Source of the DNA: Octopus vulgaris
Lineage: Eukaryota
NCBI GenBank assembly: GCA_951406725.2
Contig: OX597817.1
Location: 102,548,001 to 102,612,000, forward strand
Direction of reading: 5' to 3'
Length of the DNA stretch: 64,000 nt
Part shown: piece after piece, positions 4,033 through 53,261 of the stretch
How the letters are laid out: every line of letters begins with the position of its first letter
Position numbering within the stretch: position 1 is the stretch's first letter
Notes under the pieces: model-generated
Databases searched by the model: none
What the model was told of the DNA's origin: nothing
Seen by the model: the letters and a program-made list of their open reading frames with translations, nothing else
Program-made: the position numbers and the translations under genes

Positions 4033-4113
4033 ATAAAAAATATATATAAAAATACAAAATGGGACAAGAACGCAAAACATTCAAATAGATGACACAAAAA
4101 ACGGACGGGTCAT

Positions 4114-4221
4114 TCGAAGCCTCTAATCTTCAGTCAAGAACCGGATCATCCTCACAATTTCGGCTGATTAATCTTGAGATCGCTCCGATCCGGCCAGCCC
4201 CAAGGAAAAACTAAGCTACGA
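4114..4221 (-). ncRNA. Candidate hammerhead ribozyme with non-canonical (pseudoknotted) strand order, inside a ~180-bp insert (about 4050-4227)
   Basis: Minus strand: GGCUGG-CCGGAUCG-GA-GCGAU-C-UCAAGA-UUAA-UCAGCC-GAA-AUUGU-GAGGA-UGAUCCGG-U-UCUUGA-CUGAAGA; NUH, GAAA and CUGANGA present and stems I, II and III all pair. Confidence 0.55.
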
Positions 4222-4316
4222 GCATTACACATACACACACACACGTATATATACATATATATAACAACTTGTATATAGTATATGAGTATGTGTATTTAGT
4301 GTTTACGTACATAGGT

Positions 4317-6530: not shown

Positions 6531-6566
<36 letters not shown>

Positions 6567-6711
6567 TATATAGGTACAGGACATCACAAAACGTAAACAG
6601 CATGAATTACGAAATACGTAAACAGCATGAATTACATGTAATACGAAGGCAAACTTGGGTACGCGAACTACGAGACAAACAAAAGGAAAACAAGACAAGT
6701 AACATAAAGAA

Positions 6712-6832
6712 TGACCCTTCATCGGTTGTCGGCTGTTCATCTACTCCACATTTCGAGCAATTAACAATATGAGGCTTCGAAAAACAGTTGCTCCCGCGAA
6801 CCAAAATAAAATTTGGGATTTATGGAGGCTCA
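6712..6832 (-). ncRNA. Second candidate non-canonical-order hammerhead, inside a ~330-bp insert (about 6572-6904)
   Basis: Minus strand: UGAGCCU...GAGCAA-CUGUUU-UUCGAAG-CCUCAU-A-UUGUU-AA-UUGCUC-GAA-AUGUGG-AGUAGAU-GAACAG-CC-GACAA-CCGAUGA-AGGGUCA; same helix connectivity as 4114-4221 with different sequence. Confidence 0.5.
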
Positions 6833-6999
6833 AATTTGGTAACAAAAACAGGACAGTAGAGGCATACAACAAACCAAACGAAAGCAAACATGGAGTGCCG
6901 TTAGATATACATACATACAAACACACACACACACACATTCATTCTTTTACTTTTTCTTTTATGCGTTTCAGTTATGCGGTTCCGGTCACGTTGGAGTAC

Positions 7000-8433: not shown

Positions 8434-11400
8434 GTCCTAATGGTAACATGGAATCCAGTATAACCTGTCGCGTGGTCGGGTTGTCGGCGACTAAACTGAC
8501 ACCCCACCAGGCTATCCTGGTGAGGAGGGTTGCTAGAAAACCACCAGCAGGATTAAAAACAAGACCTGTTGAAAGGTCGGATGAACCTAGTGCATGTTCA
8601 ACAGCTATCTAGCAATAGCACGGGTACGCAGAAATTCCGGGATGGTGTCCGGCTTGCTGAAAGACCACTGGGAGTGAGGCACCCCTCAGCTTCTTTTGAA
8701 GCATGTCTCTAGGAGAAGGTCACTCTGATATAAAACCAGACATGTAGAAAATGGCATTGGACATTTTGGGGATCTTTGGTTTGTGCTAGAGATCATGGCG
8801 CTCCCACATCCCTGAGCCTGCGATCAGGCACCAGACATGTTGCTCCGGCTTGTCTCTGGATAATGTCAATAAAGTGGAGAGGGTCTATGGGGTGTCATGC
8901 AAGCCTTATTGGACCTAAAACTCCGCACAGGCATTGCTGACCTCTGCTCGATATGTGCTTCCCCCACCCTATATATATTTATTTTATTTATAGCATATAT
9001 GTATCTTTATTTTTAGTATATATTTATATATTTTTAGTATATTTTTATTTTATTCTTTATTCAGAAGTCCTGCGGCGCTTTCAGAGTATCCTATAGAAGG
9101 TGATGGTCAGCTTGAGGAAGTAGAAGGTGGATACACCTTTTTTTGGAAGGGGAGGCAGAAGGGAGAGCGCAGAGAGGCTGGCGTTGGCTTTGCAGTTCGA
9201 TCTGGTATACTTAAGAAGTTGGAGGAGCTTCCTGTTCCTACAAATGAACGTCTAATGACTCTACAATTGCACCTGAATGGTGGGCGGTTTGCTACTCTAA
9301 TAAGTGCCTATGCACCTACTTTGACTAGCTGTGATGAAGATAAAACTATTTTAAACCCAGCTGAGAGCCATACTTAGGAAAATCCCCAATTCTGATTAAG
9401 TCATTCTACGGGTAGATTTCAATGGAACTCTCTAGGACGTTTTGGAGTAGGGAAAATGAATAGCAATGGCCTCATGCTGCTGGAGCTTTGCGATGAACAT
9501 GGACTTTACATCGCAAGCACTCATTTTATATACAAAGGTGATTACACAACAAAGTGGTTGCATCCGAGGTCTAAAGTTTGGCACTTGCTGGATTATGTTA
9601 TCATCCGCAAGCGTGACATCTATGACAATTGTAATGTCAAGTCCTTTCATGGATCGGAATGCTGGACAGACCACAGTCTGGTGTGAGTAAAGTTCCGAAT
9701 GATGATTAGAGTGAAAGAGAGAAGAAGGCCAGTCAGCATTCTCGACGTCTGAATGTTCACAAGATATATGATGCTGTGTTGAGGAAAAAGCTTCAGACTC
9801 GCTTGTCCAGCATTGAAAATACTGCAGCATGGGAAGATTTTCGAGACTAGGTTCTTCAATGTGCTGCTGAAACACTGGGATATGCTACTGCCAGACACAG
9901 AGACTGGTTTGAGGAAAATGATGCAGAAGTTCAGTGACTATTGGCTGTAAAGCGCCATGCCCTCAATATATTACTACATAGAGGACTTTCTGCTGTGCAG
10001 CGAAATCTAGCACTTGCCCACTATAGCAGTGTAAAATCACTACTGCAGCGATCATTCAGGAAGATGCAGAACACTTGGTGGGAGGATCTTGCTTGTGATA
10101 TTCAGGCTGCTACTGATGCAAATGACAGCAAGAAGCTTTACTATCTTATGAAGCAAGTTTATGGGCCTAAGAGCTCCACACCAGCTCCTTTTCTTTCCAA
10201 GGTGCCTTCCACTCTATTTACTAAATCAACAGAAATCAGAGGTCGCTGGATCGAACACTTCTTTGAACTCCTAAACCATGAGTCAGTTGGGAATGAAACA
10301 GTGATTGATACTATGCAACAAAGACCTATCATTGGCTCTTTAAATTCCACGCCCTCAGTAGATGAAGTAATGGCATCAATAAGTAAATTGAATCTTGGTA
10401 GGGCACCTGGAAAGGATGGAATTTGTGCTGAGGTCTTGTGATTACATCATACAGTCCCTTCATGAACTTATTAGTGTAGTCTGGAGGGATGGTGCAATGA
10501 CTAAGGACTGAAAGGATGCAATTATTCTTCCTCTCTATAAAGGAAAAGGAGCCAGAACAATGTGTGGTAACTACAGAAATATTGCTCTACTATCAGCTGC
10601 TGGCAAGGTTCTGGCAAATATTCTTCTTTCTCGCCTGAATGGCTGTCTCGTAAATGATGTCCTATCTGAATCTCAATGTGGCTTCCGATCTGATAGAGGG
10701 ACAATGGATATGATTTTCACAGCAAGGCAGATGCAGGAGAAGTGCTATGAGCAGAATATGGATCTTGTCCAGGTATTCATTGATTTAACGAAGGCCTTTG
10801 ATATTGTGAATAGGGCCTTGCTATGGAAAATACATGGCAAAATTGGGTGTCCGGATCACTTTGTATCTAAAATTAATTCATTTCATTATGGGATGGAAGC
10901 TTGGGTCAATGTTGGTAGCATGGTGGGACCCATTCCTGTAGAGAATGGTGTCAAGCAGGGTGACATCCTTGCCCCAACTCTCTTTTCTTTGTACTTTGTT
11001 ACTGCTTTTACTCATGCTTTTGCTAAGGTTAGCTCCCTATGATTATGTGTCAGATATCGATCTTCTAGCTGCCTCCTTAATCTGCACCGATTTGCTGCCA
11101 ATTCGAAAGTTTTCCAGTCTCTTATTCGTGACCTCCTTCATGTAGATGACTGTGACTTAGTGGATAACACAGTGGATAACATGCAAATACTTATGAATCG
11201 TATCTCTGCTTTTTGCCAGGCATTTGGACTCGGCTCAGCATTAGCCTGGACAAGACTGTTGTAATGTTCCAGCCTGTACCAACTATCTTGTTTGAAGGAA
11301 CAATTCTGAAAATGGTAGACAAGTTTGTCTACCTCGGTAGCACGCTCAGCCGTTCTTGCTCCCTGGATGATGAAATATCTTTCAGGCTGCAGAGAGCAAC

Positions 11401-23318: not shown

Positions 23319-23364
23319 AACACAACGTTTCGGCTGATATACCCTCCAGTCTTCATCAGGTGTC
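23319..23364 (-). ncRNA. Minimal type I hammerhead ribozyme (left arm)
   Basis: GACAC-CUGAUGA-A-GACUGG(AGGGUAUA)UCAGCC-GAAACGUU-GUGUU. Confidence 0.8.
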
Positions 23365-23417
23365 CTGGGGAAATTTCGAACTTTTGGAATGAGAACCCAG
23401 GTTCGAAATTTCCCCAA

Positions 23418-23463
23418 GACACCTGATGAAGACTGGAGGGTGTATCAGCCGAAACGTTGTGTT
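23418..23463 (+). ncRNA. Minimal type I hammerhead ribozyme (right arm)
   Basis: GACAC-CUGAUGA-A-GACUGG(AGGGUGUA)UCAGCC-GAAACGUU-GUGUU; intact core, palindromic ACGU stem III, GUU triplet. Confidence 0.8.
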
Positions 23464-51052: not shown

Positions 51053-52341
51053 CGAGGGACGTTCAATAAGTAATGCCTCTGACCCACTTGCAGCTGTTTG
51101 ATTTAGTTGAAATTTTGCATGTGCAATTATTTATATCTCTATAGATTAAGTGGCAAATTACAGCTCTGAACTAATTGTGGTTTCTGATTTACAGGTGTTT
51201 GAACTGAGTCAAGTGTGAAATGGAGCCTGTTGAGTGTCGAGCAGTGATCCGGTTTTTGTATTTGAATGGACGCACACCACGGGAGACTTTTGATGAAATG
51301 AAAGTAACTTATGGTGATGATGTCCCATCATATGACCTTGTAAAACGCTGGCATCGTGAATTCAAACATGGTCGAAACTCTGTGGAAACAGCTCCCAGAT
51401 CTGGCCGCCCCCTTCTGCCATTGATGAGGCATCTGTCCGTCAAGTTGGGGCTGCCATTTTGGAAGATCGACGCATAACTATTCGCCAAATAGCCCATGAG
51501 GTCAAGATTAGTACCGGGTCTGTGGAAACTATCATTCATGACCATTTGCATATGCCAGATGTCTGCCAGATGGATTCTCAGGCTGCTCACACCTTTCCAG
51601 AAGCAAGAACGCATTGAGTGCTTTAGGATGAATTTGGAGATGTGCCAAGTAAAAGAGTCAACATTTTTCAAAACACTGATTACACAGGATGAAACCTAGG
51701 TCCATCACTATGATCCAGAGACCAAAGCCCAGTCAATGCAGTGGAAGCACCGTGATTCACCTCCTCCAAAGAAGGCAAGGGTGCAGCTCTCCGCTGGCAA
51801 GGTCATGCTCACAGTCTTCTGGGACCAGGACGGAGTAGTGATGACAGATTTCCTGGCAAAGGGTACCACAATTACAGGAGCCTATTATGCTTCACTTTTG
51901 AGGAAATTAAGAGAAGCTATCAAAATCAAGAGGCGGGGCAAGATCAGCAAAGGCATCCTCCTCCTGCAGGACAATGCTCTGGTCCACAAATCGCGTCTCG
52001 CCAGATCAGAAGCACAGGTGTGCGGCTATGAACTCCTCCCCCATCCCCCTACTCTACTGACCTTGCACCCTCTGATTTTCACCTTTTCCCAGCCATGAAG
52101 TTGTTTTTGAAAGGAAAGCGTTTCCCGGATGATGTAGCCTTGATTTCTGAAGTCACGTCGTGGTTGTAGGACCAAGCTGGAGTCTTCTACAAAAACGGTC
52201 TTCAAAGCTGTATCAAACGATGGGAGAAATGCGTAACTCTGGGTGGTTCCTATGTAGAAAAAGACCAATAACTGTGCCAAGTTTCGTTGCTCTACTGCTA
52301 TGGGAAGTGGGTCAGGGGCATTACTTATTGAACGCCCCTCG
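51053..52341 (+). mobile_element. Full-length inactive mariner (DD34D) transposon
   Basis: ~36-bp TIRs, TA TSD, 1289 bp; transposase about 51220-52270 with WILRLL, TQDET, LQDNA, DLAPSDF, broken by stops and frameshifts. Confidence 0.97.
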
Positions 52342-53116: not shown

Positions 53117-53261
53117 GCATTTCCTGTTATATATTAACAGTAGAGGAGTAGGGGCCGAAACTGGGCGTGGTTCCTCCTGAGGATGTCTTTCGCCACTGGA
53201 TCCTATAAAGGAGCTGTTGAGGTAGCAAACCACGATACGTGGTTGGAATTCCTCCGCAGAC
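53117..53261 (-). CDS. Putative exon (SAEEFQPRIV...IYNRKC)
   Basis: Acceptor tttaag, donor gtaaga, 145 nt, phase 2 to 0. Confidence 0.4.

Follow-up and report, generated by a model that had tools for sequence, protein, structure and literature searches.

The minus strand at positions 6712–6832 of the window (the whole 64 000-nucleotide stretch of octopus DNA analysed here) carries the remains of a hammerhead-like fold with a split core. With a probability of about three in four, we read it as a decayed copy of a non-coding repeat, likely mobilized by a Penelope/Naiad-type element, that specifies a predicted hammerhead of S-G-C block order opened between A9 and G10.1, where a four-way junction would likely hold the opened core together. 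The split-core fold itself is very likely real. Its parts, and the two further copies of the layout in the window, are as follows.

6565–6905, minus strand: 5'-truncated copy of repeat family B ending in (TA)n, delimited by blastn of the long copy L030.
6826–6832, minus strand: 5' arm of the closing helix P0, UGAGCCU (UGACCCU in the family).
6794–6825, minus strand: hairpin (CCGC/GCGG in the family), flush between P0 and stem II, the fourth arm of the predicted junction.
6788–6793, minus strand: 5' strand of stem II, GAGCAA (the G10.1 strand), displaced to the 5' end.
6782–6787, minus strand: y strand, CUGUUU, of the helix holding stems I and II together (helix 'I' of type SGC, PMC10085705).
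6763–6774, minus strand: block S, with the 3' strand of stem III (CCUCAU, 6774–6769), the triplet AUA, A17, the predicted cut (6768/6767) and the 5' strand of stem I (UUGUU, 6767–6763).
6746–6760, minus strand: block G, with the 3' strand of stem II (UUGCUC, 6760–6755), GAAA and the 5' strand of stem III (AUGUGG, 6751–6746, one U-U against CCUCAU).
6733–6738, minus strand: y' strand, GAACAG.
6719–6730, minus strand: 3' strand of stem I (GACAA, 6730–6726) and core CCGAUGA (6725–6719).
6712–6718, minus strand: 3' arm of P0, AGGGUCA (six of seven pairs), directly after A9.
4040–4227, minus strand: 5'-truncated family A copy with the same fold and an intact core (4199–4127), the 5' arm of P0 lost.
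53136–53256, plus strand: 5'-truncated family C copy with blocks S and G and the core; predicted cut 53142/53143.

The helices that the first-pass annotation had claimed for 6712–6832 are all present on the minus strand at these positions, including the closing helix straight after the core, where AGGGUCA abuts CCGAUGA. The hairpin at 6825–6794 had been overlooked. The short linker and short stem I described there (2 nt and 5 bp) are also present, but they are due to a 3 nt deletion in the stem I/linker region that occurs in three of the 30 fetched family B copies, the window copy included; the family norm is a 6 bp stem I (UUGUCG/CGACAA) with a 4 nt linker between stems I and II. The expectation that the family would restore the regular letters was borne out at all three places: CUGANGA stands in 26 of the 30 copies and UGACCCU in 17, with CCGAUGA and UGAGCCU seen in the window copy only, and stem III position 15.4 is A, as in AUGAGG, in 70 of 100 copies (hand count; T 24, C 5, G 1), these being the first listed among 187 exact matches to a pattern that leaves the position free. 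Most of the 30 fetched copies, among which the window copy is counted, are of the UGUGG (U-U) type because they were picked for likeness to the window copy. The latter is off the family B majority at 19 of 288 positions (median copy 6.5%). The family majority repairs all of its lesions, so we regard the family form as intact and the window copy as decayed. Its core departs from CUGANGA through U4C and, with the U-U in stem III, the 3 nt deletion and the P0 mismatch added, this copy is probably weak or dead. The earlier judgement that U4C made it probably inactive therefore stands as to the likely inactivity but not as to its cause, which lies in the combined lesions rather than in U4C alone; by itself, U4C reduces hammerhead activity without necessarily abolishing it (PMC3088659).

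The layout was described for searching in the order IIa-y-IIIb-H-Ia-IIb-GAAA-IIIa-y'-Ib-CUGANGA. This descriptor finds three sites in the window (128 kb over both strands), namely 4133(−) and 53177(+) with an exact core and 6725(−) with one core mismatch. As for comparable hits in shuffled sequence, whose frequency the first-pass annotation had treated as decisive, 461 block-wise dinucleotide shuffles of the window (59 Mb) yielded no exact-core site and four sites with one mismatch; these four scored 21–23 and the window copy at 6712–6832 scored 22. Were the helices chance pairing in an AT-rich SINE-like repeat, one would look for unremarkable nested folding and no Rfam match, and both were found: the nested fold of the element has a z of −0.46, no hammerhead model matched positions 6600–6900 at E ≤ 10, and there was no hammerhead among the 150 listed of 236 (microsatellite-driven) Rfam matches over the whole window. 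Ordinary nested folding is, however, expected of this layout, as most of its helices cross. The stem II/y arms first found at 53177(+) were indeed chance and were rejected, since they lie outside the family C repeat; against chance pairing, the true arms are supplied by the family C majority sequence, exact-core sites are absent from the 59 Mb of shuffles and the layout recurs in several phyla (in Naiad records, below). Chance pairing is close to refuted by the shuffles, the B/B2 pairing and the five-family comparison given below, and we hold it to be highly improbable. In the nested minimum-energy fold of family B, the 3' strand of stem II pairs with GAGUAG in a competing local hairpin. A canonical reading with P0 as stem II was also tried and rejected, because GAAA does not follow the P0 arm in family B and no stem III or stem I fits (by eye).

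The annotation had argued from two elements that the fold was kept while its helix sequences were replaced, and five families in the genome (A, B, B2, C and N), each with different sequences, extend this. In all five majorities CUGANGA, GAAA and UH with A15.1-U16.1 are present, the core varies at N7 and H17 only, stems I, II and III flank the core with covariation as in hammerheads, the linker between stems I and II is 2–5 nt long and the y/y' helix joins the distal sides of these two stems. Junction-proximal pairs hold in 73 of 75 cases, with two to four pair types at most positions. Since the descriptor selects for pairing, the weight is carried by the constancy of the core and by G10.1-C11.1, which is invariant in the five majorities although the descriptor did not require it. 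In an unfitted alignment of B with its homologous subfamily B2 (16 of 30 loci each, y left out), 87% of cells are paired, against 40–47% for slid partners, and both sides have changed in stem III (AU 14 / GC 14) and stem I (CG 15 / GC 13); the tally of pairs with two-sided change is not above shuffles (231 of 500). Stem II of B2 was misregistered by MAFFT, so its covariation was taken from the majority parse. P0 is 77% paired and shows no compensatory change between B and B2. By eye, the place between stem III and y/y' is taken by a standard kink-turn in A and N, by a non-standard loop in B and B2 and by no more than a 5 nt bulge in C.

This behaviour of P0 bears on an alternative in which the cutting unit consists of stems I–III and y/y' only, P0 and the hairpin being incidental and the 5' strand of stem II being supplied from upstream. 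Such a unit would fit the lack of compensatory changes in B/B2, the weakness of P0 in A and N and the loss of the P0 arm from the family A copy in the window, but P0 and the hairpin abut without an unpaired base in B, B2 and C and, by eye and with other sequences, in the 3' ends of the Acropora and Pomphorhynchus laevis Naiads. Junctions as good were found in 62 (B), 71 (B2) and 0 (C) of 2000 shuffles; for the other two families the counts, 315 of 2000 in A and 466 of 1000 in N, make the test a weak one. We consider an incidental P0 quite unlikely and retain the four-way junction as part of the predicted fold.

The nearest known relatives are the type-SGC hammerheads (HRIMA-1 and variants), which cleave in vitro at 0.007–0.19 per min and were reported from metatranscriptomes and from no known organism's genome (Eckert et al., 2023, PMC10085705). 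On that description, type SGC and the predicted split-core form have in common the order S-G-(y')-stem I-CUGANGA, a short linker between stems I and II, the tying helix and an invariant core. They differ in that the CUGANGA of type SGC is joined directly to the stem II strand and y, whereas in the split-core form the stem II strand and y stand at the 5' end, and P0 and the hairpin occupy the A9/G10.1 step. The S-G-C order with crossing helices sets the form apart from the nested C-G-S junction of types I, II and III; it also lacks type SGC's uninterrupted block C, CUGANGA being followed by P0 with the stem II strand about 70 nt upstream. The form would work like type SGC while lacking this one defining feature. 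Eckert et al. (2023) assume that block C tolerates no interruption beyond 1–2 nt; opened between A9 and G10.1, the present form falls outside their six permutations. Type CSG, a tested layout from the same paper that is reported from only a few soil metagenome sequences, is another opening of the S-G-C circle, between stem III and y'; it has the tying helix too but, unlike the split-core form, an intact block C.

Canonical Penelope hammerheads often carry one extra base between positions 9 and 10.1 (PMC4209133), and the hammerheads of canonical Penelope elements and non-LTR retrozymes are of type I, with a tiny stem III, and act as dimers (PMC4209133 and bioRxiv 10.64898/2026.07.22.740005). 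Like these minimal hammerheads as they are described there, the split-core form belongs to the terminal repeat that a Penelope element, or a non-autonomous derivative of one, carries; unlike them, it has a full stem III and pseudoknots and should act as a monomer. As regards non-LTR retrozymes, tandems are present (L030) and the hammerhead is not of type I. No report of the layout, or of permuted hammerheads in Naiads, was found in the literature searched, which did not extend to subscription papers and preprint supplements, and the layout is not described in the parts covered of PMC13725137, PMC6765202, PMC10162972, PMC3088659 and two preprints.

Family B is a dispersed repeat with 4500 candidates in the 2.8 Gb genome (the best 40 at 84–89% identity). 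Its full unit is about 840 nt long, without a recognisable open reading frame, and its copies, while differing in where they begin at the 5' end, all stop alike at a (TA)n tract on the 3' side. Partial tandems in direct orientation occur in three of 30 loci (L003, L022 and L030), adjacent inverted copies in four of 30 (L005, L018, L023 and L024) and a 40–50 nt tail equal to the start of the unit in six of 30 copies. The 5' truncation, the partial tandems, the inversions, the tail and the (TA)n targets together characterize family B as a non-autonomous Penelope-like element; PMC8557442 gives the same marks for Naiads and Penelope-like elements, with a tail of 30–40 bp. The common fold and the insertion pattern likely tie family B to Naiad. 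It differs from Naiad in having no open reading frame, and the DNA of families A, B and N shows no mutual match. The Naiad reading frame (N-terminal GIY-YIG, C-terminal reverse transcriptase) was not found in the family B unit, nor was an autonomous partner found for family A or B. Among 30 fetched Penelope loci with a C-terminal GIY-YIG there was no credible descriptor match (one weak, with a mismatched core), so that no partner was found there either. One young family of such elements (L067 and relatives) has intact 781-codon frames and, by eye, a type I minimal hammerhead at its 3' end with U at core position 3. Full A, B and B2 units have in common, in their 5' parts (L035, L048, L030 and L104), a donor-like GTAAG site together with a CACGTGA box and a long tract of pyrimidines. 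Family A has an open frame ending in FFVCRKALFSKY, which loosely resembles the C-termini of Naiad reverse transcriptases.

The description of the element at 6712–6832 as an independent instance in an unrelated insert holds for the DNA, there being no blastn match between families A and B, but not for independent invention: the two families share the Penelope-type architecture, which points to divergence or module exchange.

Subfamily B2 lies in the flank of L064 and in, for example, L091–L120, and is 69–71% identical to B. Its GAAA is intact in 31 of 100 listed copies; the first A is T in 25, deleted in 21, G in 12, accompanied by an extra A in nine and C in two. With GAAA broken in 69 of the 100, B2 copies have spread without an intact core. 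This hypervariable position contrasts with about 91% identity elsewhere in B2, and its variation has no clear linkage to other variable sites (30 copies). The pattern is like that expected when a reverse transcriptase misreads a modified base (the m1A signature, UUCGA context) or when uncleavable templates are enriched.

Host elements are recognizable for two of the families, N and C, both of which have, upstream and in the same orientation, the gene for a reverse transcriptase. Family N corresponds to an Octopus Naiad's 3' end, a motif of which has 494 matches in the genome; a decayed reverse transcriptase lies about 1 kb upstream (E of 1e-5, below the Pfam cut-off), in a reading that stopped short of the GIY-YIG end of the element. 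Family C belongs to an R2-like non-LTR element (L263–L265), of which it forms the 3' end; this end is sharp and lacks (TA)n. The family C layout lies about 600 nt downstream of a decayed open reading frame with a reverse transcriptase (Pfam E of 2e-7) whose best solved relatives, by a weak match, are R2 proteins. CCHC and nuclease-like motifs were seen in this frame by eye; the presumed nuclease region has no Pfam or PDB match, and we take the element to be of the RLE type, HERO-like. A layout placed after an R2-like reverse transcriptase means that the module is not confined to Naiads. By eye, family C and the Pomphorhynchus Naiad have almost the same S-G block, hinting at module exchange.

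For Naiads, Craig et al. (2021, PMC8557442) report no canonical hammerhead, with some elements flagged HHR_half_core. We viewed by eye the last 330–450 nt of 48 consensus records from the supplement of that paper and, in these portions, found the split-core layout in eight (three from Acropora, Morbakka Naiad-2, Pomphorhynchus, two from Octopus and Euprymna). Again by eye, the 3' ends of six nematode Naiads can be read as type CSG, and those of four or five Naiads from spiders and ostracods as a related S-G-C arrangement in which stem II is local; the remaining records have other motifs, or nothing in the part viewed. On the type-CSG reading, the Ascaris Naiad has an extra U between A9 and G10.1. 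Among the other motifs, CGGGUG...CACCUG is conserved in the 3' ends of oyster, hemichordate and Clytia Naiads. Those of Movir-1, Chem-4 and mussels carry twister-like motifs.

Elsewhere in the window, 9060–10000 is by eye a decayed LINE with an endonuclease-like region and 51060–52340 a mariner-like transposase remnant. A 120 nt near-perfect inverted repeat at 23331–23450 (Rfam MIR9486 below threshold) is probably a MITE.

If RNA of these families was cut at the predicted site, the start points of truncated copies may record it. Of 433 family A copies whose truncation falls near the site, 100 were listed; in a hand count of these, 91 start at or after the predicted cut and six before it, and three are internal variants. 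This step is confounded in that the starts at +3 and +8 are (AT)n microhomology joins and the phase of the filter excludes one upstream join. Without positions +3, +8 and +9 the counts, each taken over six positions, are 31 and 6, the highest single value being nine at +1. In family C the starts number eight and six among 14 usable of 31 matches, the other 17 being internal indel variants. Pieces of family A also occur in four presumed-RNA contig sets, the contigs giving no ends, strand or circles.

Cutting may alternatively be absent or dependent on a helper, with a hammerhead-derived fold kept for the binding of a retroelement protein or for RNA stability. This would explain why most listed B2 copies have a broken GAAA, why a B subfamily with U-U in stem III has spread (24 of 100 listed) and why the covalent A9–G10.1 link could be dispensed with; moreover, in one tested Penelope element, the hammerhead was dispensable for insertion in vitro (PMC11167929). 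A fold that does not cut leaves unexplained, however, the constancy of the core letters, UH and G10.1-C11.1 in five families while the helices turn over, and the step that the start sites of family A show where the cut is predicted. We find it unlikely, though the least so of the alternatives, and predict that family B RNA quite probably did cleave itself.

In the self-cleaving form that we prefer, stems I, II and III would build the usual core around CUGANGA/GAAA/UH, y/y' would substitute for the loop I–loop II contact as in type SGC, and P0 and the hairpin would stack, keeping A9 beside G10.1 without a covalent link. Self-cutting of the RNA would take place some 200 nt short of the element's 3' end, so that read-through or tandem transcripts would be trimmed to units with the cut site as 5' end. 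The reverse transcriptase/endonuclease of the element or a helper would then copy the trimmed units into (TA)n tracts, giving rise to 5'-truncated, tandem and inverted insertions.

Taken jointly, these observations lead us, with somewhat less assurance than for the window copy, to favour a wider reading: a seventh natural hammerhead wiring outside the six-block scheme, with the core split at A9/G10.1 and rebuilt by a four-way junction, which may be the missing ribozyme of many Naiads (cnidarians, acanthocephalans and cephalopods), may have been taken up by an R2-like LINE and may have left, where truncated genomic copies begin, a fossil footprint of cleavage in vivo. If the form cleaves, the CUGANGA block need not run into stem II, contrary to what had been assumed, and hammerhead engineering gains a new opening point. 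Standard descriptors and Rfam miss the layout, so genome-wide counts of invertebrate ribozymes would then be too low. If the reading is true, non-circularly permuted hammerheads would shift from anonymous environmental RNA to animal genomes, where they would occupy thousands of sites and their host element is known, the claim that Naiads thrive without hammerheads would be overturned and the role of ribozymes in Penelope transposition would become testable.
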